A stretch of DNA of 61,033 bases from the IMG/VR virus record IMGVR_UViG_3300025900_000203, one strand, 5' to 3'. Numbering within the stretch: the stretch's first letter is position 1; every line of letters begins with the position of its first letter. Positions 4,407-35,785 of the stretch are shown one piece after another. The notes below the pieces were generated by a model. The model worked only from the letters and a program-made list of their open reading frames with translations. It had not been told where the DNA came from and made no database searches. Source of the stretch: an uncultured virus (IMG/VR IMGVR_UViG_3300025900_000203). Taxonomy: Duplodnaviria; Heunggongvirae; Uroviricota; Caudoviricetes. Made by a program: the position numbers and the translations under genes.

Positions 4407-5131
4407 CGATAGCGAAGGGTAGTGCTGAGCGACGGGCCATCTGCAGGGCCGTGTGTATGCTGTTGGGGCGTTGCACCGTACGTCGGCAGCGCTGTCGAGA
4501 ACGTCGGCACGGGCATCACGTGCGTGTCGTCCACGATCTCGATGCGCGAAATCGACATCCAGCGACCGTCGAAGAGCTTGCCCTCCTTGTCGACGGGTGG
4601 AGAGATCGCGATGCGGATGTGGCTGTCGCACAACTCGAAGCCGATCGAGGAGAGCACGCCCGTCATCCCAGAGATGCGATCGCGTCCGCGCTTCCCCAGC
4701 ATGCCGAACGCCGTCGCGTAGTTCGGAAACGACGGTGTGGGCATGACGCGGACGTCATCGATCAGCCAGAGACGATGAACATCCAGCATCCGACCGTCGA
4801 CAAACTTGCCATCCTTATCGACCGACGGAGCGATCGCTGCCTGGATGCAGCCGTAGAGATCGAAGGTGAGCGCGTCACAAACACCTTCCTGCGCGGAGAC
4901 CTTGTCTTTGACGCGGCGGCCGAGGAGCTCGAAGAAGGCGGAAAGATCGGGCACGGGATTGGGCACGTTGGTTCCTTGGCAGATTCGTGGATGCGCGGTC
5001 ACGGGAATTCGTGAACGCCAGGGTTCGTGGCAGAGCTTCAGTTTTCCGTTTGTGTCTTGATGTGCGTAGTGCTCGAACACGGAATCCCACACGCTGGGCT
5101 CACCGGCCGCGCAGTGGGGACAGGTGGTCAC
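4403..5131 (-). CDS. Hypothetical protein with an internal tandem duplication of a ~65 aa domain
   Basis: GRRVKDKVS..VDKDGKFVDGRMLDVHRL..VMPTPSF repeats as GKRGRDRIS..VDKEGKLFDGRWMSISRI..VMPVPTF. Confidence 0.75.
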   Translation of the reverse strand: MTTCPHCAAGEPSVWDSVFEHYAHQDTNGKLKLCHEPWRSRIPVTAHPRICQGTNVPNPVPDLSAFFELLGRRVKDKVSAQEGVCDALTFDLYGCIQAAIAPSVDKDGKFVDGRMLDVHRLWLIDDVRVMPTPSFPNYATAFGMLGKRGRDRISGMTGVLSSIGFELCDSHIRIAISPPVDKEGKLFDGRWMSISRIEIVDDTHVMPVPTFSTALPTYGATPQQHTHGPADGPSLSTTLRYR

Positions 5132-5874
5132 TTGCGGATCTTCTTCTTCGAAGCACGCTTCTTGGTGACCTTGGCCGGCTTCTTCGCCTTGGCGCTTGCG
5201 GGCGACTTTTTCTTCACCGCGGTCATCGCTCGCTCGCGAGCAGTTTCAATCTCTGAGAATCCGCGGAGAATGCTCTGCTGAAGATCGCCGAGACTCTTCG
5301 CGATCGTCGAGATCTGCTGCAACACCGTGAGCAGCCCGGTGCTCAGGGCCTCCCACGCAGGCTCAGCGATTTCTGGCGTGGGCGCGGGCGTAGGCGTTTC
5401 AGTCGTCGCCACAACAGGCGGTGTGATTTCGGGCGGGGGCGCGGGCGCGGGCGTTTCAGTCGTCGCCGCAACAGGCGATGTGGCAAGAGCTGCCCGCACT
5501 TCTGCTACGACGTGTTCACGCGAGATCGTGCGTTCGTTCCCGCCTTCGGCATCGTCGGAGCGACGCAAGTCCTTCATTTTCATCATCCCGGCCCCCAGCT
5601 CGCCATAGCCAAGGATCAGCACGATGGGGATCCCTGCCTGATCGGCGTACTTGAGTTGCTTCCCGAGTTTGTCCTCGCCAGTGTAGATCTCGACGACCAA
5701 GTCACCGTCGGTAACGTTCAGATCGTGCTTGAGCGCCTCGTATTCATCGGCGAGTGACTCGTCGACGTTCAAGATGAGCACATCCGCAGTCGCGGCTTCT
5801 GCGGAAGGCATGATCGGCATATCTGAAAAAGTCATGTGTCTCCTAGTCATCGTTGTCGAGATCCTTCGGGACAT
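5128..5874 (-). CDS. Stand-alone HisRS-type (class IIa) anticodon-binding domain with Pro/Thr linker and Lys-rich tail
   Basis: KLGKQLKYADQAGIPIVLILGYGELGAGMMKMKDLRR resembles the HisRS C-terminal domain. No catalytic aaRS core. The true start may be downstream (5835 or 5818). Confidence 0.75.
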   Translation of the reverse strand: MSRRISTTMTRRHMTFSDMPIMPSAEAATADVLILNVDESLADEYEALKHDLNVTDGDLVVEIYTGEDKLGKQLKYADQAGIPIVLILGYGELGAGMMKMKDLRRSDDAEGGNERTISREHVVAEVRAALATSPVAATTETPAPAPPPEITPPVVATTETPTPAPTPEIAEPAWEALSTGLLTVLQQISTIAKSLGDLQQSILRGFSEIETARERAMTAVKKKSPASAKAKKPAKVTKKRASKKKIRK

Positions 5875-15533: not shown

Positions 15534-16460
15534 ATGGCCGAGGTTAAGAAGGTTTCGAGCGTGGATTGCGAAAACGAGAGCGAGCGTGGGAAACGGGGGC
15601 ACCGCGGGCATCGGGGCCACGCAGGTCCAACAGGTCCAACGGGTCCTTCTGGGAGTGGGGCGGGAAGTACAGGACCAACAGGAGCAACCGGATCAACCGG
15701 GTCGACAGGCGGTGGTAGTACAGGTCCAACGGGATCCACAGGTGGTGTGGGCAGCACAGGTCCAACCGGAGCGGATGGCGGGACCCCTAATCCAACGCTC
15801 GTCGCCGACTATTTCGACGACTTCATCTCCGTCGCAAACATTGGTGCGAGCGGCACTGGAGCTGCCCCGGGCAGCGTCTTCTGGAACCCGACGAATGGCA
15901 ACACGCTAAACATGATTGGGTCTGTGCAGATCCGCGCGAGCCTCATCGACTTGACGGGTCGTCTCTCGATCCTCACCGACAAGGGCAGCGCGCAGGTCGG
16001 AGATCCTTTCTTCTACTTCGGAACAGGGTCTTCCTTTTCATGGGAGTTCCGCTTCAAGGTCACGAACGTCTTCAGCCTCGGCAATGATGCACTGTTCGTG
16101 ATCGGCGCGCACGATGGCGTTGGAAGTCTTCCGACGAACATCTGTGGGTTCACGGCAGGCCTGGGAGAGAACGGCAATCTGAACTGGTGGGCGGTCTGCC
16201 GATCTGGTGCGGCTCCCACGAAGTCCGATACTGGCATCGCCGTCGACACGAACATCCATCGCTTCAGTGCGAGCGCGGACTACAACACAGGTACCGCCAC
16301 GTTCTTCATCGATGACGTGTCGGTCGCGACGATCAACACGAACGTGCCTACCGATCAGTTCCTTGATCTTCAGTGCACGCTGCTATCGATCGATGGGGAC
16401 ACCTTCGATCTGTACTGGGATTGGGTCAAGTTCCATATGGCGATGGCACGCCTACCGTAG
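15534..16460 (+). CDS. Collagen-like protein with C-terminal beta-sandwich (ConA/LamG-like) domain
   Basis: Leader [20 protein letters not shown]-x-T triplets, then a domain with DTGIAV..TNVPT. Confidence 0.8.
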
Positions 16461-25412: not shown

Positions 25413-25475
25413 GGAGCCGCGGCGAACTCACGTGAACCGTCGCCTCGCGACGCTAGCGTCGTCGCGGCTCCGCCA
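25413..25475 (+). ncRNA. CCA-terminated acceptor-stem / minihelix-like RNA
   Basis: 13-bp stem GGAGCCGCGGCGA / TCGTCGCGGCTCC followed by G-CCA; internal hairpin CGTCGC-CTC-GCGACG. Confidence 0.45.
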
Positions 25476-25477
25476 AT

Positions 25478-25548
25478 GCCTTCGTAGCTCAACGACAGAG
25501 CGGTCGGTTCTAACCGACGAGACGGTGGTTAAACTCCATCCGAAGGCT
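25478..25548 (+). ncRNA. tRNA-like RNA with a 6-nt anticodon loop (TTCTAA)
   Basis: Acceptor GCCTTCG/CGAAGGC, D stem GCTC/GAGC, stem GTCGG/CCGAC, T arm GGTGG-TTAAACT-CCATC. Confidence 0.75.
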
Positions 25549-25551
25549 CTT

Positions 25552-25624
25552 GGGGATGTAGCTCAGTGGCAGAGCGAAAGACTCGAAAGAGTTTTTGGTG
25601 GTGGTTCGATTCCATCCGTCCCCA
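25552..25624 (+). ncRNA. tRNA-like RNA with the anticodon arm replaced by an 8-bp stem and GAAA tetraloop
   Basis: GGGGATG/CGTCCCC, TAGCTCAGTGGCAGAGC, AAAGACTC-GAAA-GAGTTTTT, GGTGG-TTCGATT-CCATC. Confidence 0.8.
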
Positions 25625-25645
25625 CGTGATATAGGTACAGCGATT

Positions 25646-25718
25646 GGAGTCCGAGCTGCCGGGTGCAGCACCGCGAGTAATGATCGCGGGGTGATCGGTT
25701 CGAGCCCGATGGACTTCG
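25646..25718 (+). ncRNA. tRNA-like RNA with a 6-bp anticodon stem and loop GTAATGA
   Basis: GGAGTCC/GGACTTC, GCTG/CAGC, CCGCGA/TCGCGG, ATCGG-TTCGAGC-CCGAT. Confidence 0.7.
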
Positions 25719-25750
25719 CTAGCGCTTGTCTCGAAAAGAAGCGCAACCCG

Positions 25751-25824
25751 GGGCGCGTAGCTCAGTGGCAGAGCGGAAGTGGTGATGAAACTTCAGGTTG
25801 CGGGTTCGATCCCCGCCGTGCTCA
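25751..25824 (+). ncRNA. tRNA-like RNA with a 9-nt anticodon loop (GGTGATGAA)
   Basis: GGGCGCG/CGTGCTC, TAGCTCAGTGGCAGAGC, GAAGT/ACTTC, GCGGG-TTCGATC-CCCGC. Confidence 0.8.
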
Positions 25825-26533
25825 CGCAATCGTCGGAAATGATCTTCCACCACGGCGGTGTGTAACCGTCTAGCTCGCAGCGTGGGCCGTACGTTCCGCC
25901 CAGCTCGAAGAGCACCGCGCCGGTCCGCTCATCGATTCCGTAGAGGATCGAATCTCCGTGGGTGCGTAGCGATACCATGATCGCTTGTCTAACGATCTTC
26001 CTGATTCCTGTGAGCGCTTCATCGATCTTCGCACGCTCATCCAAGGCAGCTTCCAGGAAGAGCTCTTCGCGACGCTGAAGGAACACCAACGCGCGTTCCC
26101 CTAGGTCGAGGATGATTCGCGTAGGATCTGTGGGGCGTAACGCCCACGACTGAAATATCAATGGCAGTTGAACCGTAACCTCACGGCTCCAAAAGACCGC
26201 CAAAAACTGCCGCCCTTCTAGGTACGCGTCGCCAATGTACTCGATGTCGAGTTGCACACGCGCCTCCACGCGCAACGTCTCGAAAGATAGATCTAGCTTC
26301 GAAAGAGCCTCCGCAGGCACAGGCCCGCTTAGAAACTGCGATCGTCCGTCGATTCGAAGATCGTGGATGATCCAGTCAGCAGCATCCCTAACCGTCAAGC
26401 GCTGCGGTTGGAATGGACGCTGCGGTCTCGACTCGATCGTCAATACACGTGGCGTCGGGATGTGGCATCCCCACACCTGAAGCTTCGCAACACCGTCGCC
26501 TAAATAGGTCTTGAGATCTTCCGCGGAGAGCAT
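25793..26533 (-). CDS. Hypothetical protein with a beta-rich SRPQRPFQPQRL module
   Basis: 246 aa ORF; the 3' end overlaps the last tRNA-like gene on the opposite strand. Confidence 0.55.
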   Translation of the reverse strand: MLSAEDLKTYLGDGVAKLQVWGCHIPTPRVLTIESRPQRPFQPQRLTVRDAADWIIHDLRIDGRSQFLSGPVPAEALSKLDLSFETLRVEARVQLDIEYIGDAYLEGRQFLAVFWSREVTVQLPLIFQSWALRPTDPTRIILDLGERALVFLQRREELFLEAALDERAKIDEALTGIRKIVRQAIMVSLRTHGDSILYGIDERTGAVLFELGGTYGPRCELDGYTPPWWKIISDDCVSTAGIEPAT

Positions 26534-26861
26534 CCAATACCGTCAGGCTACAACGATTTCGTGATGAACCTACTGGGTAGACTGCTACCCACACGTTAGC
26601 GACTAGCGACCAGCGTGATGCTTGCCCTGGTAATACGCGTCGTGATGGTACGGACCGCTCGTATCCTTGACGTGTAGATCGAGAGGGCTGTTGCGACGGT
26701 CTGCTTTATCCCAGGCACGTTGCTGCTTGACGCGGCCAGCGCGGCGATGGCCGCAGCACCCACAGTTTCGACCGGCCGAGCACTTGGGACGACGGGATCG
26801 GGACATTTGACCGTAGCTTACAGCCAGCGCGTGGGTAGATCTCGACCCATGTTCGTTGACC

Positions 26862-27491
26862 ATGGCTTCTGCGACAGTCCTTGCGATGAGCGTCGAGAAC
26901 CGCGAAAGCTTCTTCCAGCGTCTCTACCCCTTCTTCTCCCCGAAGATCCTCCGCGACATCGAGCTGGCGTACATCCTCGCGAAGTCGGCGCACCGATCGC
27001 AGGTGCGTAAGGAACTAGACGAGCAAGGTGACCCGGTGCGGTACTTCGAGCACGTCCGTCGGGCGACCCTCATCGGGATCGATCTCGCGCAGATCGTTCG
27101 ACCGGACACGGTTATCGCGAGCATCCTGCACGACGGAATCGAAGACACCCGTGATCTACGTCCCGAAATGATCGAGCATGTCTTCGGGGTCGACGTGTGC
27201 GGGATCGTGAAGGTGCTCTCGAAGGATCCGAAGGAAGGGTACCTCGACCGATTCTACGTGTGCACAGACTGGCGGCCGTACTTCGTGAAGGCATGCGATC
27301 GTCTCGACAATCTTCGCTCGATGTCTGGATCGACCCTCGAGTTCCGTCGAAAACAGGTCACCGAGACCCGGGACAGATACTTCCGGTTATTCGATCGCAT
27401 GGTCACGCTGACGCCGGAGGAGTATCGCGACGGAGTTCGGCGTCTGCGGGAAGTCATCATCAAGACGACGGCGGAAATTCCCCTAGCGTAG
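26862..27491 (+). CDS. HD-domain protein, RelA/SpoT hydrolase (small alarmone hydrolase)-like
   Basis: AYILAKSAHRSQVRK..YFEH..IASILHDGIEDT..VKVLSK..VKACDRLDNLRSM. Confidence 0.85.
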   Translation: MASATVLAMSVENRESFFQRLYPFFSPKILRDIELAYILAKSAHRSQVRKELDEQGDPVRYFEHVRRATLIGIDLAQIVRPDTVIASILHDGIEDTRDLRPEMIEHVFGVDVCGIVKVLSKDPKEGYLDRFYVCTDWRPYFVKACDRLDNLRSMSGSTLEFRRKQVTETRDRYFRLFDRMVTLTPEEYRDGVRRLREVIIKTTAEIPLA

Positions 27492-28375: not shown

Positions 28376-28738
28376 TCAGCTGTACTGGGTGAGCGGCTCT
28401 TCGATGCGTGCCTGGATCTTCCGCCAACCCGGCAGGTTCTGATCCATCAGCTCATAGAACCGACCGTCGTGTCCGTCCGTACGATGGTGCACGAGCTCGT
28501 GCACGACGAGATATTCGACGGTCTTTGGCGGGAGCTTCGCGAGCGCCGTATTGAACACGGTGTGCCCGATCGTTTTGTTCGTCGATCCCCAATAGGTCTT
28601 CATCGGCCGCAACTCCCAGTTCAGCACATGCACGCCGAGGATAGGTTCCCACTTGTCGATCAAGCGTTGGAGCTGACCGCGGAGGCGCTCTTTCTCTTTC
28701 GACTCTTCGAGATCTCGGTGAAAGATCGAGTGCTTCAT
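28376..28738 (-). CDS. YgjP/DUF45-like zinc metalloprotein (M48-like)
   Basis: MKTYWGS..FNTALAKLP..EYLVVHELVH....H...FY..M....PGWR. Confidence 0.85.
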   Translation of the reverse strand: MKHSIFHRDLEESKEKERLRGQLQRLIDKWEPILGVHVLNWELRPMKTYWGSTNKTIGHTVFNTALAKLPPKTVEYLVVHELVHHRTDGHDGRFYELMDQNLPGWRKIQARIEEPLTQYS

Positions 28739-28788
28739 CGACAGCCACCATTGTCGCCGACGCCAACGTGCTGTGCAACACTTCACGG

Positions 28789-29343
28789 ATGGCGCGATCA
28801 CTCCGTCCGTACGGCCCAGGCACCGCTAGATTTTCTACCTGCAAGACGTGGCGCTACGCGCTGACCCGAGACTTGACCGCCCAGCCGCATCCAACCCCGC
28901 GTCGCGGGATCCTGCTCTCGATCGGACTCAATCCGTCCACAGCGACGGATGACGATGACGATCCGACGATTCACAAAGAGTCTGGATTCGCGGTCGATTG
29001 GGGGCACGCGCTGTATCTGAAATACAACGCATACGCTTACCGCGCGACGTTGCCGAAGGACATGTTCGCGGCGCGGAAGCGCGGCGTCGACATTGTCGGC
29101 CCCGACAACGATCGTTCCATCCTGGAGGCAGTCCACCGCATCCGTCACGAAGGAGGACTCGTGCTCGCGGCTTGGGGGAAGCATATCGAGCCCGATCGTC
29201 AACAGGTTCTCGGAGCACTTCTCCGCGAATTTCAAGTCGTCTGCGTGGACACCAACAAAGACGGCAGTCCTTCGCACCCGTTGTACAAGAGCGCGGACTA
29301 CATCCGGCCATGGCGGTGTCCAACCCTTCCGGTCCCGTTATGA
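28789..29343 (+). CDS. DUF1643-family protein
   Basis: WRYALTR..IGLNPSTA..DDPTI..N.YAYRAT.P..GPDND..LAAWG..G.P.HPLY. Confidence 0.85.
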   Translation: MARSLRPYGPGTARFSTCKTWRYALTRDLTAQPHPTPRRGILLSIGLNPSTATDDDDDPTIHKESGFAVDWGHALYLKYNAYAYRATLPKDMFAARKRGVDIVGPDNDRSILEAVHRIRHEGGLVLAAWGKHIEPDRQQVLGALLREFQVVCVDTNKDGSPSHPLYKSADYIRPWRCPTLPVPL

Positions 29344-29980: not shown

Positions 29981-30212
29981 CATGACCAAGGACCATACGT
30001 TCGCCCGCCTCTTGGAAGGGGATCAGCCTGGAGAGAGTCGGATCCGCTGCTCGTGTGGCTGGACTTCGGTAAGTGCACCTGGGCACCTGCTCGATCTCGA
30101 CATTCACTTCGCCGAAGTAAACAACGTCTCCTATGAAGAGCAGAAACAGCGCACCGCTGAAGCGCTGCGAGCTGCCGGCATCACGTGTCCTGATCCGAAG
30201 CCTCTCAACTGA
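29981..30212 (+). CDS. Hypothetical protein
   Basis: ORF 29976-30212, CSCGW motif; start approximate. Confidence 0.45.
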
Positions 30213-31359
30213 GAGTGACGTCGTGCAGATCGAGGCGACTTCCGAGAAGTTGTCGCAGGTACGTCAACGCTTTCTTCTCGAGCTGTCGGATACGCTCGCG
30301 CGAAAGACTCATGTCGGTACCGATCTCGATCAACACCTCAGGCTCTGCATCTCCGAGCCCGAACCGCCGGCGAATGACTTGGGAAAGCTGCGCAGGCATG
30401 AGGCCAAGGGCCAACTCGATGCGCTCATGCTCTTGACGACGAATGAGAACCTCATCCGTTCTGGGTTCGGTACTCGCGAGGGTGGAGGGTAGCTCGCCAT
30501 CTTCACCAACCGAGTCGAACGCTGGCAGCGCCTCCGCGTGCCGGAGCCAGTCACTTTCCAACGACTGGATGCTCTTCTTGGAAACTTTGAGCCGTGCGGC
30601 CAGCTCGTCTTGTGTGGGATCACGGCCGAGCTCCGCAACCAGGACTGTCTTGGCAGACCGCGACCGGAACGAAAGCTCTTGAAGATGTACCGGAACGCGC
30701 ACGTCTGCTCCGAGGTTCTGTCTCGCGCGTACGACGTAGTGCCGGATCCACCATGTCGCAAAGGTGTTGAACTTGAGCCCGCGACGATGATCGAAGCGTG
30801 CAACCGCCTTGAGCAGCCCGAAGTTACCCTCTTGGATGAGGTCACTCATGGAGAGCCGGGTCTTGAAGTGGTAACCGTGTCGCCGAATGGTCGCGATGAC
30901 CAAGCGAAGGTTGCTGGTTACAAAGCGTTCGCGAATCCGATCTGCCTCTACAAGCAACGGCCGCAACGCGCGCAACTCTTCTGCATGCCGATCGCTGGAA
31001 GCGGCTTCGGCAATCACGCGGTTCGCGAGATGACGATCGAGATCCGCAGCCCGTGCGGCTTTCGCACTGGACGGCTTGATGGGCGGCTCAAGCTCCAACA
31101 ATTGTTTCCGAGCCGCGAAAGCTAGCGGGCCTTTGAGCAAAAGTTTCCAGATCGTGATCTCGAGACTTTCGAGCCGTTTCGCCAGGACGATCTCTTCTTC
31201 TGCCGTTAGGAGCGCGTGTCTACGAATTTCGGCCGCGTAGAGTTGTTCAGCGTCTGCACGACCTCGCTCGAGCGCTTGGCGCGGCGGCTTCCTCGGCAAC
31301 GTGGCTGCGGGTTTACGTGGCAAACGCTTCTTAGAAAGATGAGTGGAGGACGCTCCCAC
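30205..31359 (-). CDS. RNA polymerase sigma-70 family factor (RpoD/RpoS-like, lacks region 1.1)
   Basis: LLTAEEEIVLAKR, SNLRLVI, DLIQEGNFGLLKAVARFD..GLKFNTFATWWIR, LSRERIRQLEKKAL. Start uncertain (31359 or 31404). Confidence 0.93.
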   Translation of the reverse strand: MGASSTHLSKKRLPRKPAATLPRKPPRQALERGRADAEQLYAAEIRRHALLTAEEEIVLAKRLESLEITIWKLLLKGPLAFAARKQLLELEPPIKPSSAKAARAADLDRHLANRVIAEAASSDRHAEELRALRPLLVEADRIRERFVTSNLRLVIATIRRHGYHFKTRLSMSDLIQEGNFGLLKAVARFDHRRGLKFNTFATWWIRHYVVRARQNLGADVRVPVHLQELSFRSRSAKTVLVAELGRDPTQDELAARLKVSKKSIQSLESDWLRHAEALPAFDSVGEDGELPSTLASTEPRTDEVLIRRQEHERIELALGLMPAQLSQVIRRRFGLGDAEPEVLIEIGTDMSLSRERIRQLEKKALTYLRQLLGSRLDLHDVTLS

Positions 31360-31404
31360 GATCCCCGTTCTACACGAGAACGCCGTAGAACTGTCAGCCT
31401 TCAA

Positions 31405-31560
31405 CTACGACGGCAGATCTGACCCAATGAGATCACGGGCGGCTAACTGGATTCCTGCTCGCGTGAAGAGGTCCAACATCGAAGAGGCTGCCACCTCACC
31501 TTCTAGATGGAGACGGGTTGCGATGAAGATCACGAGCGCGAGGACAGGCATCCTGGACAC
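31405..31560 (-). CDS. Small 51 aa ORF missing from the track
   Basis: TACGCT-N6-GTG; VSRMPVLALVIFIATRLHLEG..DLPS. Confidence 0.4.
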   Translation of the reverse strand: MSRMPVLALVIFIATRLHLEGEVAASSMLDLFTRAGIQLAARDLIGSDLPS

Positions 31561-31633: not shown

Positions 31634-31770
31634 CGACGGATGAAAAGCGATCAAGGATGTTTAGCGCTCTACCGGGCTGAGCTATGTCCGCGGCTTACAC
31701 CACGTCCAGCGGGATTTGAACCCACGACCTCTCGTTTACAAGACGATAACCCTCGATCAACAACCCGTCG
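31634..31770 (-). ncRNA. YrlA-type Y RNA (permuted tRNA-like module)
   Basis: Terminal stem CGACGGGTTG/TCATCCGTCG, T arm GTGGG-TTCAAAT-CCCGC, closed acceptor, D arm TAGCTCAGCCCGGTAGAGC; downstream of Ro60. Confidence 0.85.
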
Positions 31771-31949: not shown

Positions 31950-33614
31950 TCAAGAGCGGAAGAAGTCGGCCATCAATGCAGGAGCTGCTGCATCGAAACC
32001 GACCACATCGATCATGCCCGTATCCGTTGGATCCGCGATCGTAAACTCGGTCGAGGTCATGCCCACGACTGCGAGCTTCGTCGCCCGTCCCGAGCTTCGT
32101 CGATAGCTCTGGAGTGCCTTGTGTGGATGGATCTCACCAGCCCACGTCTCGTTATCGGTGTAGATGGCTACAGCATCGACCTTGGCCTTCGTCTTCTCGG
32201 CCCAGATCATCGGCAGGGCACAGTCTGTCCCGCCCATCGGGATCTTCTCGATCACACGGATCACATCGTCGAGCCGCATGCGTGGCGTGATCGGAATATC
32301 CATGAGCCCAGGTTGCCCACCACCCCACCGTCCTCCATAACCGCCAGCGGCCTGCGAGAATCCGACGATGTGATAGTTCGGCTCGACGTTCGCCGTCACG
32401 AGCGCCATCGCGGCAGAAGCCTCACGTGGTGTGAGTCCCTGACATCCTGCGATCGTGCCACCCGTCATCGAGCCCGAGACGTCGAGCGCGAGCAGTGTCG
32501 CTTGGTTCGTTGGGGTGACCGCGCTGAACGCGGCATAGAAGCCCGCGTCGAGCGCGTCGACGATCGCTTGGACGGGCGTCCACGTCGATTGCCCTCGCTC
32601 GCCGTGCCCCTGTCCGTACGTCTTCAGCGCCATGAGCATCTGGATCGGATGCACACGAGCCTTCTGGAGCTGGTCGGCACTCGAGATTCGCGCGCAGATT
32701 CCAGCGACATGGGCCCCGAGCGGTGCGATGACGCCGATCCGCGTCATCGTCGCGAGGTTGCGCACGAGCGCGGTCAATCCCATGTGCGGCAGTAGGGCTT
32801 CCCAGACTTCCGCCTTCGTCAGATGCGCGGTGGGCACTGCCTCGCGTGGCAGCTCGTGCTCACGGATCGCAGCCACGACCTTCTTCACATCCGTCTCGTG
32901 CTTCAGCTCCTCGAACGCGAGGGCGATCGCCGGCAGCGACTTCCGTTGATCCGCGTCGAGCCCTTCGTAGCCGTACGTCGTCCAGCAATAGAGCGCGTTG
33001 CGCGCGGCGAAGTCTCCACCACCCGTCGCCTTCTTCGGGTTTGGGCGCACGAGGTTTAAGAGATCCCTGGCTGCCCAGCCATCGCGCGACGGGTACTTCA
33101 CGATCTGATGAGCCACAGCCTCGACCGATCGAGCGTTGAACCATCGACCGATCGCGCGGCGCATGCCAGCACCCCAGCCGCCACCCTCGATCAGGCTCGT
33201 GAACATGGCGAAGTGGTAGAGGTGCGTGCCGATCCGGCAGACACGCGGCAGGGCCGTGTAGGCCGCCTGCTTCGTCGCGAGATCCCCGAGCTTAGCCGCG
33301 AGAGCGAGTGCAAGAATCGCGGGATCGTTCTTGGGAGCCCGCCCGCTTTCCGAGAGCGCGACGACTTCGCGCACGAGCCGCGGGCCGTCGAGCTGGATCA
33401 GGCGCTCGACGCACGCGGCATTCTCGCGCACGAGCTTCCGCTCGGAGGCGTAATACGTCCCACCCTCAGCGCCGAGCACGAGGAAACGCTGGAGCCGAGT
33501 CCAGTCATCAACGACGAATGTGTAACCCCCGGCGTTGTTCAGGACCTGGCGCGGATCGGCCTTCTCCTGTTGCGTTGGTCCCGTGACAGCGCCCTTCAAG
33601 TAATCGAATCCCAT
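31950..33614 (-). CDS. rsr: Ro60 / TROVE-domain RNA-binding protein (Rsr) with vWA domain
   Basis: NNAGGYTF..RLQRFLVLGAEGGTYY, GRAPKNDPA, VCRIGTHL, LPREAVPT, ARVHPI, LALDVSGSM (MIDAS), GGTDCALPM, YTDNETW. AGGAGA SD before ATG 33614. Confidence 0.96.
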   Translation of the reverse strand: MGFDYLKGAVTGPTQQEKADPRQVLNNAGGYTFVVDDWTRLQRFLVLGAEGGTYYASERKLVRENAACVERLIQLDGPRLVREVVALSESGRAPKNDPAILALALAAKLGDLATKQAAYTALPRVCRIGTHLYHFAMFTSLIEGGGWGAGMRRAIGRWFNARSVEAVAHQIVKYPSRDGWAARDLLNLVRPNPKKATGGGDFAARNALYCWTTYGYEGLDADQRKSLPAIALAFEELKHETDVKKVVAAIREHELPREAVPTAHLTKAEVWEALLPHMGLTALVRNLATMTRIGVIAPLGAHVAGICARISSADQLQKARVHPIQMLMALKTYGQGHGERGQSTWTPVQAIVDALDAGFYAAFSAVTPTNQATLLALDVSGSMTGGTIAGCQGLTPREASAAMALVTANVEPNYHIVGFSQAAGGYGGRWGGGQPGLMDIPITPRMRLDDVIRVIEKIPMGGTDCALPMIWAEKTKAKVDAVAIYTDNETWAGEIHPHKALQSYRRSSGRATKLAVVGMTSTEFTIADPTDTGMIDVVGFDAAAPALMADFFRS

Positions 33615-33630
33615 GTTCCTTCTCCTGGTT

Positions 33631-33909
33631 TTAAGTTTCGTGAAAGTCTTTGACCGGCTTGCCGTCCAGCAAGTCCAGCATCGCTTGTAGCGTTGGGCGA
33701 TCGAATCGCATGTGGTTAACGAAGAATTTCTCTCCGTCTTTCCCGACACGGTAATCGTCTCCGACCCAACCTCCCTGGTCCTTCACCTCAACGAGTTGAT
33801 GTCCATCGCTGAACGTCACGAGAGCGATCTCTGTTAGAGGACCGTCGTACCAGTCGAGGCAGATCCACTCGGAGTACGATCGGCGATCGGCTTTTTCGTC
33901 AGGTGCCAT
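33631..33909 (-). CDS. Hypothetical protein, first gene of the Ro60 unit
   Basis: TACTGT-N6-ATG; DWYDGPL motif. Confidence 0.65.
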   Translation of the reverse strand: MAPDEKADRRSYSEWICLDWYDGPLTEIALVTFSDGHQLVEVKDQGGWVGDDYRVGKDGEKFFVNHMRFDRPTLQAMLDLLDGKPVKDFHET

Positions 33910-34792
33910 CGCGCTACAGTACAGACCTTGTGACTCACTACAAGCCGGTCTACGAAGCGATTCGCGCGAAGCTCAACGCAGAAACCGAGCATCGTCCGTT
34001 CCGCACCCTCAAGGAATGGATCTTGGCTGAGAGAGCCTGCGTGATGATGGAGGTCAACTACCAGCGAAGGCTCCTCGCCTACGATCCGGTCAGCGTCGCT
34101 TGTATCGAGCGTGCAGAGAACCTGGCGGTCGGCCACAGCGACTACATCTCGAAATACGCGCACGCTGCCACAGACCTGGTCTTCCGCAAGGAGACTACGT
34201 GACGGCGGAAGAGGAGCGCGTGCTCCGCGCTCGGATCGCCGAGTTGGAGACTGAACGCGAAAAGATGCTGCCGATCTACGAGGCGCATCTCCGCACGCTC
34301 AAGAGGATCGAACAAGATCGAGCACGTATCGCGGCCCTCTCCGAGTTCGATCAGCACCGCGAACAATGCCACGCCGCGTACGAGTACGCCTGCACAACCA
34401 ATGTTCGAAAGAGTGGCGAGTCACCCATGCCTGAAGGTGATGGCTGGGAGGCGAACAACATCATCCCGGCACATCAGTACAAGGATGGAATTGTGCAGGA
34501 AGAGTGCTGGTGTAACTGGACGCGAGACGCGTTCACGGAAACCAACTACTGGCGGCGGAAACGCGCGTGATCAGTTCGCGCGTTGCTTCGCGTCGACTTC
34601 GACAGGCACCATGAAATCGCCGCAGCGATCACATTTCGGAGCCAGCTCTGCAGCAGCTCGCGGATCGCTTCGCTTCAGCGAAAGCTCTGCGTAACAGCCG
34701 GGGCACCCCCAGTGGTAGATGGGCTCCGTACATGCGACGAGATCTTCAGAACGGAAGCTGCGCTGCTTAAATTTCACGGCGGCCCTCCTCAT
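33903..34792. other. Hypothetical CDSs (33903-34202 +, 34199-34570 +, 34571-34792 -)
   Basis: Two coupled plus-strand ORFs and one convergent CxxC-containing ORF. Confidence 0.55.
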
Positions 34793-34830
34793 GAGCCTAC
34801 CGCAGTTGCGGCACGGTAACGTTCGTTCGG

Positions 34831-34903
34831 AGCTTGCGGCGAGACTTGAACTCGCGACCCCCTGATTACAAGTCAGGTGCTCTGCCAGCTGAGCTACACA
34901 AGC
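34831..34903 (-). tRNA. tRNA-Thr(TGT)
   Basis: GCTTGTG..CCTGA-CTTGTAA-TCAGG..GCGAG-TTCAAGT-CTCGC-CGCAAGC. Confidence 0.95.
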
Positions 34904-34918
34904 AGTCGCCTGTTATCG

Positions 34919-34991
34919 TCGAGGTGACGTGACTCGAACACGCAATCCCCGCGTCCCAAACGCGGTGCGATACCAATTTCGCTACACCTCG
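34919..34991 (-). tRNA. tRNA-Pro(TGG)
   Basis: CGAGGTG..CCGCG-TTTGGGA-CGCGG..GCGTG-TTCGAGT-CACGT-CACCTCG. Confidence 0.93.
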
Positions 34992-34996
34992 ATACG

Positions 34997-35068
34997 TGCC
35001 TCCGGTCAGACTCGAACTGACACACTTTCGGTTAAAAGCCGAATGCTCTGCCTTAGAGCTACGGAGGC
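34997..35068 (-). tRNA. tRNA-Lys(TTT)
   Basis: GCCTCCG..TTCGG-CTTTTAA-CCGAA..GTCAG-TTCGAGT-CTGAC-CGGAGGC. Confidence 0.93.
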
Positions 35069-35103
35069 GCTTCGTCGTCGTCAACTATTCAGTTGTCATG
35101 GTG

Positions 35104-35174
35104 TTCGAGGTCAAGGACTCGAACCTTGATTGCCTGGGCCAAAACCAGGTGTCTTGCCTTTAGACGAACCTCGA
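35104..35174 (-). tRNA. tRNA-Gln(TTG)
   Basis: TCGAGGT..CCTGG-TTTTGGC-CCAGG..CAAGG-TTCGAGT-CCTTG-ACCTCGA. Confidence 0.92.
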
Positions 35175-35182
35175 TCGGGCCG

Positions 35183-35214
35183 AAAACGAGAAAGCCACCC
35201 AGTTGGGTGGCTCC
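35183..35214 (-). terminator. Attenuator-type intrinsic terminator just upstream of the tRNA operon
   Basis: GGAGCCACCC-AACT-GGGTGGCTTT-CTCGTTTT. Confidence 0.75.
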
Positions 35215-35240
35215 AGATCGCGACGGCTGTAAATAGCCTC

Positions 35241-35360
35241 CTACGCGTCTGGAGCACTCGCTTTGGTTGTGGGCTGAGGTTGACGCGCTGTGCTCGGGCA
35301 CACTGCGACCATAGAGCGGATGCGCTTGGTCGATGCAGTGAAGAGCGAAACGGTCAACAC
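35241..35360 (-). CDS. Leader peptide (39 aa) of the tRNA operon
   Basis: GTG..TAG: MLTVSLFTASTKRIRSMVAVCPSTARQPQPTTKASAPDA; starts 6 nt after the -10 box. Confidence 0.7.
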   Translation of the reverse strand: MLTVSLFTASTKRIRSMVAVCPSTARQPQPTTKASAPDA

Positions 35361-35366
35361 AGGCTA

Positions 35367-35395
35367 AGACTAACGTGGAGACCGTACGCTGTCAA
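35367..35395 (-). promoter_or_regulatory. Sigma-70 promoter of the tRNA operon
   Basis: TTGACA-N17-TAGTCT. Confidence 0.8.
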
Positions 35396-35455
35396 TGAAT
35401 CGTGACGATCTCGCCAGTGGACAACGATCGCGGCAGTCGTTAAACAGGAACTGCT

Positions 35456-35785
35456 ATGAGCACCAAGTTCAGCATCGGCGACGTCGTGACATGGACTTCC
35501 AAGGCTGGTGGACACGCGCTCGAGAAGCAGGGAACTGTCATCGAGATCGTGCCTGCGGGATCCACCCCCACGGCCAACCTCGGGCACCATGCCGGCGGCT
35601 CTGCACGATTGCACGAGAGCTACATCATCGCGGTTCCGCAGAAAACGAAGTCACGGACGGGGCATGCAGTGCGGCCAATCAAGAGCAAGCTGTACTGGCC
35701 CCACGTCGGGGTGCTCCGCCGCGTCGAGCCGCCATTCCTGCCGCCGCAGGCGGTGGCTTCTGATACGGCAGCTCAGCTAAACTGA
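35456..35785 (+). CDS. Hypothetical SH3-like phage protein
   Basis: KFSIGDVVTWTS..KQGTVIEIVPAG..HESYII..LYWP. Confidence 0.65.
   Translation: MSTKFSIGDVVTWTSKAGGHALEKQGTVIEIVPAGSTPTANLGHHAGGSARLHESYIIAVPQKTKSRTGHAVRPIKSKLYWPHVGVLRRVEPPFLPPQAVASDTAAQLN

Follow-up and report, generated by a model that had tools for sequence, protein, structure and literature searches.

A leader and terminator-like hairpin on the only visible route into a phage tRNA cluster

Amino-acid attenuators of the trp, his, thr and pheA class consist of a promoter, a short open reading frame (ORF), alternative RNA helices and an intrinsic terminator placed before the controlled genes, with a stop codon that lets the terminating ribosome cover the 5' strand of the competing helix. 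A unit with the same layout lies in IMGVR_UViG_3300025900_000203, the record of an uncultured caudoviricete virus. There, a leader containing a 39-codon frame and ending in a terminator-like hairpin precedes four transfer RNA (tRNA) genes of the specificities Gln, Lys, Pro and Thr. The window, meaning the whole stretch of 61,033 nucleotides that was analysed, belongs to a large phage of about 60% GC from rhizosphere metagenomes, and all leader, terminator and four-tRNA features lie on its minus strand. The unit also departs from the classical attenuators in several respects. The genes controlled are tRNAs rather than biosynthetic enzymes, the start of the frame would be leaderless, and the competing helix removes only two pairs of the terminator core. 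Absent translation is predicted to give read-through instead of super-attenuation, and the regulatory codons form a mixed run of which only part is cognate.

The leaderless polycysteine short ORFs of mycobacteria described in 10.1101/834739 are similar in having a predicted GTG 5' end after a TANNNT box and in placing a short unannotated ORF first in a polycistronic unit. As that work presents them, they carry single-amino-acid runs and control the translation of the gene that follows, whose ribosome-binding site they unmask. The phage unit differs in that its downstream genes are tRNAs, which leaves the terminator as the only lever.

Other comparisons come from phage and bacterial RNAs. The lambda nut and rrn boxA elements share with the leader a short boxA-like word just past the start, a hairpin next to it and a terminator downstream; unlike them, the leader offers only a 7/8 match to the lambda boxA motif, the word is partly paired, and no cognate factor was found. 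Bacteriophage T4 encodes RNAC and RNAD with its tRNA genes. They too are phage-encoded structured RNAs, described in PMC9697503 as being of unknown function, and have no sequence or structure relation to the leader. YrlA and the bacterial Y RNAs (Rfam RF02553) are structured RNAs near a Ro60 gene and tRNA genes, as is the leader, which differs in having no match to the model while a separate YrlA-like RNA is present elsewhere in the window.

Phage tRNA genes are usually seen as codon-usage helpers or as spares against tRNA-cutting defences, and to our knowledge the control of their expression is almost unstudied. A literature search at the level of titles and abstracts found no description of phage tRNA genes controlled by a leader peptide or a terminator. 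Here, transcription has a single visible way into the four-tRNA cluster, and it passes the strongest terminator-like hairpin of 60 kb. If ribosome traffic sets the read-through, the supply of phage tRNAs would be coupled to the translation state of the host; if the RNA alone does so, a new abundant phage small RNA would be co-produced with the tRNAs. The leader-terminator unit forms a compact construct of 220 bp in which these possibilities are testable.

Promoter, terminator-like hairpin and fold of the leader RNA

The elements of the unit (Table 1) are jointly unlikely by chance, and the leader-terminator gate on the phage tRNA cluster is real. The layout is also unusual; the evidence points only weakly to a sensing of those very tRNAs. 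Promoters of the form TTGACA-N16-18-TANNNT match once in the window against 0.25 expected, and at least one match occurred in 22 of 100 shuffles. This best promoter match and the best terminator-like hairpin of the window bracket the unit.

The hairpin GGAGCCACCC-AACT-GGGTGGCTTT with its tail CTCGTTTT ends 16 nt before tRNA-Gln. Its core, GCCACCC/GGGTGGC (35211-35205 / 35200-35194), is closed by the loop AACT and continued by three weak extension pairs. A GC-rich hairpin of 7 to 10 pairs followed by a T-rich tail, as in intrinsic terminators, thus stands between the leader ORF and the tRNA genes. Across bases 1-60000, terminator-like sequences matched 41 times against about 44 expected by chance, which gives the class as such little weight; the hairpin before tRNA-Gln is the only one of the 41 with 10 pairs, the next best having eight, and the strongest in these 60 kb. 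The interrupted tail TTTCTCGTTTT would fit partial termination.

No further promoter match was seen between the hairpin and the tRNA genes, and read-through must therefore occur. Transcription cannot enter the tRNA genes from an upstream gene either, because the neighbouring gene for a 109-amino-acid protein diverges from the unit. ARAGORN and Rfam agree on the four tRNA genes, which score 58.6-69.7 bits against the Rfam tRNA model. The first-pass annotation of this DNA, a reading of its letters and ORFs, had reported four downstream tRNAs of these specificities, TTGACA-17-TAGTCT on the minus strand and the GGAGCCACCC/GGGTGGCTTT terminator; the promoter is correct in letters and coordinates, the hairpin with its tail is present, the tRNAs are confirmed, and a promoter-proximal terminator does separate the tRNA genes from the one promoter seen.

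Table 1. Features of the leader-terminator unit, the tRNA cluster and adjoining genes
Feature	Position	Strand	Remarks
-35 box TTGACA	35395-35390	minus	sole TTGACA-N16-18-TANNNT in the window
-10 box TAGTCT	35372-35367	minus	17-nt spacer from -35 box; TAGNNT type, as in boxes 5-7 nt before many gene starts
GTG at predicted transcription start	35360-35358	minus	6 nt past -10 box; start placed by geometry
Leader ORF, putative, 39 codons + TAG	35360-35241	minus	open reading frame; stop 35243-35241
BoxA-like word CGCTCTTCA	35348-35340	minus	just past start, hairpin next
5' domain, 80-nt irregular hairpin, 29 pairs	35358-35279	minus	-35.3 kcal/mol, z -4.3, 0/200 shuffles as good
CA-rich stretch CAACCTCAGCCCACAACCAAA, QPQPTTK in the ORF frame	35282-35262	minus	35278-35265 single-stranded in fold
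3' domain, three-way junction	35264-35183	minus	-41.3 kcal/mol, z -5.2, 0/200 shuffles as good
Closing helix AAAGCGAG / CTCGTTTT	35264-35257 / 35190-35183	minus	8-bp perfect; turns 3' domain into three-way junction
2:3 helix with inner hairpin	35253-35244 / 35222-35212	minus	extendable to 35255/35210; -25.8 kcal/mol
Intrinsic-terminator-like hairpin + tail TTTCTCGTTTT	35214-35181	minus	core -13.5, extended -17.1 kcal/mol
tRNA-Gln(UUG)	35174-35103	minus	ARAGORN + Rfam
tRNA-Lys(UUU)	35068-34996	minus	ARAGORN + Rfam
tRNA-Pro(UGG)	34991-34918	minus	ARAGORN + Rfam
tRNA-Thr(UGU)	34903-34829	minus	ARAGORN + Rfam
Small Cys-pair (zinc-ribbon-like) ORF	34792-34571	minus	after tRNAs; GGAGG before in-frame GTG at 34777
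109-amino-acid protein gene	35456-35785	plus	divergent from leader unit
Ro60/TROVE gene	31950-33749	minus	downstream of unit
YrlA-like (Y RNA) match, full-length	31634-31767	minus	28.9 bits, below Rfam gathering score 69

The leader RNA, about 180 bases long, is predicted to be structured far beyond chance. With 200 shuffles for each RNA segment, the RNA 35362-35175 folds at -81.5 kcal/mol (z -5.4, no shuffle as good), and in the unconstrained fold it consists of two autonomous domains joined by the CA-rich single strand. The helix of the 5' domain opens at base 3 of the predicted transcript, which leaves the GTG at the foot of a -35 kcal/mol hairpin. Stable RNAs typically have a helix so near the 5' end, and it would sit poorly with a leaderless start. 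In the 3' domain, the U-run of the terminator is paired with AAAGCGAG in the full-length fold, forming a helix that an attenuator does not need. The helix designated 2:3, which would compete with the terminator, has a pairing probability of 0.95-0.98 without a ribosome, and the bases of the proposed 1:2 pairing make up the 3' arm of the separate 5' hairpin.

A leaky terminator whose strength is set mainly by the fold of the RNA, and which releases a structured RNA of about 175 nt, is the reading that we tentatively place first. It is put forward because the leader is structured in excess of chance, its U-run is paired and the predicted switch is small. On this model, a strong promoter of the host type would start the RNA at G35360, and the transcript would fold into the 5' hairpin domain, the CA-rich single-stranded linker and the 3' three-way junction with the terminator hairpin. 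All transcription into the four tRNA genes would pass the terminator, where part of the polymerases would stop near 35187-35183 and free a structured RNA, stable and about 175 nt long. The remaining polymerases would read through into the tRNA precursor, from which RNase P, cutting at 35175/35174, would release this leader as well. Ribosomes on the 39-codon frame could change the balance two- to three-fold at most.

A search of the leader against Rfam gave nothing beyond one snoRNA-type match on the opposite strand (E=8.2), and in 33500-35700 nothing matched the T-box riboswitch model at E up to 10. The leader was also considered, and rejected, as a trans-acting small RNA: its best duplex with 82 candidate start regions reached -24.4 kcal/mol against a shuffled-seed mean of -25.8, and 70% of 200 shuffles equalled or beat it.

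Translation of the leader and competing explanations

The 39-codon ORF, the codons CAA CCT CAG CCC ACA ACC AAA at 35282-35262 and a further CCA four codons on (35252-35250) are present as the first-pass annotation placed them, and its proposal of a leaderless start is plausible. The frame begins exactly at the predicted transcription start, in a box-to-start layout common to many gene starts. In this phage, a TANNNT box lies 5-7 nt before the ATG or GTG at 18 of 526 starts of coding-like ORFs and at 11 of 886 others (odds ratio 2.8, p 0.0065), with six cases at each of the spacings 5, 6 and 7 nt and 29 across the remaining 22 spacings tested. The leaderless GTG start is plausible because of this frequent placement. 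The enrichment suggests widespread leaderless genes and a host with promoters of the actinobacterial type. Boxes such as TAGGGT, TAGGCT, TAGAAT and TAGAGT precede tail-fibre-like and other long ORFs. Starts with this layout are found at 15534(+), 23163(+), 43792(+), 54854(-), 53777(-), 29896(-) and 20185(-).

The coding signal of the leader ORF is ambiguous. Its score of 0.033 per codon falls between the means for real genes (0.468, sd 0.210, 279 windows) and for off-frames (-0.579), and a second frame in this stretch scores no differently (-0.026). No homologue of the leader peptide was found among 1.84 billion representative predicted proteins or in a word-indexed protein search, and an ORF on the opposite strand likewise had no protein match. 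An exact look-up of three leader ORFs returned no record; the first residue was taken as coded, so a version starting with M may escape it. As a side observation, the stop codon overlaps a perfect Shine-Dalgarno-like TAGGAGG (35237-35243, minus strand), which lies in the internal loop of the 2:3 element and has no start codon within 5-10 nt downstream.

All seven codons of the QPQPTTK run encode amino acids of the four downstream tRNAs, as the first-pass annotation held, but only three of the seven (CAA, ACA and AAA) are the A-ending cognates. By wobble rules, CCT, CCC and ACC are normally decoded by other tRNAs. When the leader was shuffled 20000 times with its dinucleotides kept, 32 shuffles produced a run of at least seven Gln, Pro, Thr or Lys codons; when the 21-nt CA-rich segment was shuffled 100000 times with the frame fixed, 1.1% did so. 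The six frames of the window contain 12 such runs, eight of them almost wholly proline. The CA-rich segment has C or A at 19 of its 21 bases, and such a linker tends to spell tRNA-cognate codons because all four tRNAs read [A/C][A/C]A. This bias reduces the surprise of the codon run without abolishing it.

The attenuator logic was followed by ribosome-mask folding, in which the RNA was taken as of the emergence of the terminator 3' arm and only RNA 3' of the ribosome was allowed to fold. The upper five pairs of the 7-bp terminator core keep a probability of 0.81-1.0 at every ribosome position, and the main 2:3 helix one of 0.89-0.99 unless it is covered by the ribosome or outcompeted (0.67 at codon 11). 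Helix and terminator coexist except at the base of the core, where competition is confined to the two lowest G-C pairs. Those pairs form with a probability of 0.43 without a ribosome, 0.41-0.63 with the A site at codons 21-31 and 0.99 at codons 32-40. A switch of the proposed polarity is therefore present in the model, of about 2.4-fold at most.

Several parts of the earlier scheme are modified by these results. It had set the 2:3 helix and the terminator against each other as exclusive; the polarity is right for stalls at codons 21-31, but the helices coexist, competition concerns two of the seven core pairs, and the overlap of the 2:3 helix with the 5' arm of the terminator amounts to only 5 nt (GGAGC). 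Stalling in the run was expected to give read-through. For that, CAA27 and ACA31, and also ACA24, are well placed, whereas a stall at ACC32, AAA33 or CCA37 favours termination, with a full-terminator probability of 0.99. The cognate codons for Lys and Pro are misplaced for a tRNA-sensing model because AAA33 and CCA37 fall on the termination side. The 1:2 pairing fails as described, since GAGCAC (35295-35290) / GTGCTC (35257-35252) and CGCGTC (35287-35282) / GACGCG (35249-35244) follow a crossing order, and two 6-bp helices that cross cannot both form in one hairpin. Without a ribosome, the probability of the 1:2 pairings is 0. When a ribosome occupies early codons, the freed GAGCAC/GTGCTC reaches 0.64-0.81 and the terminator base 0.93-0.99; on this model, the 5' hairpin could act as a relay, with read-through as the outcome in the absence of translation.

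The terminator governed by its own RNA fold is nearly tied with a ribosome-coupled attenuator, the general and the tRNA-specific forms of the latter being taken together. The attenuator owes its place to the GTG at +1, the leaderless habit of the phage, the position of the stop codon and the codon run. Several points weigh against a purely RNA-determined terminator. Its predicted transcript opens with GTG, in a layout enriched at the coding-like starts of this phage. A 5'-terminal ATG or GTG is reported as necessary and sufficient for translation in mycobacteria (PMC4633059), and a non-coding RNA opening with GTG would be unexpected if the host behaves like them. A ribosome terminating at the stop codon of the frame would cover segment 2, QPQPTTK stands beside exactly these four tRNAs (chance probability about 0.002-0.01), and no second site complementary to the linker occurs in the window. 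In its general form, taken alone an unlikely account, the attenuator would have the leaderless frame translated. A ribosome at codons 32-40 would then cover segment 2 and allow the full terminator, and with no ribosome, or one stalled around codons 21-31, the 2:3 helix would take the terminator base and cause read-through. Such an element would report a general failure of translation and not the state of particular tRNAs. It agrees with a GTG exactly 6 nt past the -10 box, with the response of the lowest two pairs to ribosome position and with the closing of the terminator base by the freed GAGCAC/GTGCTC, which allows the 5' hairpin to relay; leaderless short-ORF attenuators are, moreover, described in mycobacteria (10.1101/834739). 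The predicted change, however, reaches only two of seven core pairs, the start codon adjoins the -35 kcal/mol hairpin, and the U-run-pairing helix is left without a role. The nearest clusters of the phage sigma factor, in turn, are not actinobacterial. The tRNA-specific form is improbable, because some of its codons are misplaced or non-cognate. It was the proposal of the first-pass annotation, in which a failure of Gln, Pro, Thr or Lys decoding stalls the ribosome at QPQPTTK and brings in replacement tRNAs. Failed decoding of host Gln or Thr codons (perhaps also Pro or Lys), for example through an anticodon nuclease, would stall ribosomes at codons 24-31, weaken the terminator through the 2:3 helix and turn the phage tRNAs on. 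The seven-codon restriction to the amino acids of the four tRNAs, the siting of CAA27, ACA31 and ACA24 where a stall favours the 2:3 helix, and the lack of any published description of such control at title and abstract level are counted on its side. On the other are the low share of cognates in the run, the stalls that yield the opposite of the model, a CA-rich linker that would spell such codons anyway, the occurrence of each amino acid only once or twice, and a second tRNA cluster (25478-25825) without such a module.

Other explanations give the leader a different function or none. Temporal control by a factor is about as improbable as the sensing of specific tRNAs: the terminator would block early host polymerase until a phage or host factor let it through, in the manner of lambda N/nut, put or boxA/Nus. 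The boxA-like CGCTCTTCA just past the start with a hairpin behind it, a sigma factor encoded nearby by the phage itself and a 5' domain structured far beyond chance without an assigned role are in keeping with this. However, the word is a short match, a given 7-mer is expected in about 1% of such leaders and several motifs were considered; part of the word is base-paired in the predicted fold, and a scan of 33 ORFs revealed no gene for an antiterminator. Still less probable is a leader with no regulatory role, in which the hairpin processes or stabilises the tRNA precursor or is fortuitous, and the ORF and its run are due to chance. ORFs of this length are indeed ubiquitous in this DNA of 60% GC, 84 of at least 25 amino acids overlapping a 5-kb stretch, and a strong hairpin also lies 7 nt ahead of the other cluster's first tRNA; pure chance is nevertheless unlikely, given z values between -4.3 and -5.4, a promoter that matches only once and a 10-pair hairpin with a T-run that has no second. 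A role of the leader as the Y RNA partner of the Ro60-like protein, whose gene lies 1.4 kb downstream on the same strand, can be almost wholly dismissed. Neither YrlA nor any other Y RNA matches the leader at E up to 10, the GNCGAA motif given in PMC4201824 is absent from it by eye, and a full-length YrlA-like match lies elsewhere; this candidate was accordingly discarded.

Relatives of the locus and genomic neighbourhood

Comparative searches recovered few relatives of the locus. The 109-amino-acid neighbouring protein has three relatives at 73-76% identity. Among viral contigs, this protein as query gave 28 stretches with two distant relatives, neither locus having a tRNA; the alignment of its family gave eight stretches, the Ro60 protein two and a 73-amino-acid ORF 29, all without relatives, and exact words from the leader and tRNA-Gln had no match. 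A two-anchor tRNA pattern and an 18-mer each led to one locus (L006 and L007, respectively), both in unrelated phages. Among 42 stretches from genome contigs no relative was found, and a further scan gave no match.

Metagenome contigs were closer. Their 108 stretches contained two loci, both with a 100% identical neighbour protein of the 109-amino-acid type; one (L004) is identical to the window over all 661 aligned columns and the other (L003) differs at three. Contigs from three DNA runs showed 0, 1 and 7 differences over 1301 bases. The one difference within the leader, A to C on the minus strand at 35327, changes the frame by K12Q and breaks an A-U pair, too little to gauge constraint.

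Evidence on the host is mixed. A protein identical to the 109-amino-acid neighbour occurs on contigs of up to 231 kb and had no match in phage records, where the helicase matches were uninformative on the host. The nearest clusters of the phage sigma factor are Thermodesulfobacteriota, Planctomycetota and Myxococcota. Relatives of the Ro60 protein are mostly in actinobacterial phages, the best match being a Sinorhizobium phage; in Sinorhizobium phage Phosso, no tRNAs lie near the Ro60 region.

Behind the four tRNAs, the small Cys-pair ORF had no family match and probably belongs to the same transcription unit. Farther downstream, the YrlA-like RNA at 31634-31767 lies directly after the Ro60 gene, with T-arm and D-arm in the permuted order typical of YrlA, and is probably the Y RNA of the phage. 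A weaker YrlA match (34872-34951, minus strand, 26.1 bits) extends from the 3' half of tRNA-Pro across the spacer through the 5' half of tRNA-Thr. It is most likely an artefact, the adjacent tRNAs mimicking the order of T-arm, stem and D-arm. Between the YrlA-like RNA and the sigma-factor gene, a frame of 51 codons (31405-31560, minus strand) begins with a GTG 6 nt after TACGCT and ends directly ahead of the sigma-factor long ORF, with which it shares its frame. It could represent a second leaderless upstream ORF or a chance occurrence. Other genes related to RNA and translation encode an HGTP_anticodon-domain protein (5128-5874, minus), an HD-domain protein (26856-27491, plus), a YgjP-like metallopeptidase (28376-28801, minus) and the sigma-70 family factor itself (30205-31404, minus).

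The other tRNA cluster, at 25478-25825, has no leader-terminator module and follows a 122-codon ORF and a 13-bp hairpin. This GC-rich hairpin (25413-25471, plus strand) lacks a T-run, ends 7 nt before the first tRNA and opens with GGAGCC, as does the hairpin before tRNA-Gln. The tRNA genes at 25478-25549 and 25552-25625 (plus strand) score 49 and 53.8 bits against the Rfam tRNA model. ARAGORN assigns them 'anticodons' of 2 and 4 bases, which correspond to 6- and 8-membered anticodon loops; in the first, the loop TTCTAA conceivably holds a CUA (amber-reading) anticodon. ARAGORN also reports, at 25646-25719 (plus strand), a tRNA-Ile that falls below the Rfam tRNA gathering score and has the anticodon AAU, which is unusual for bacteria.

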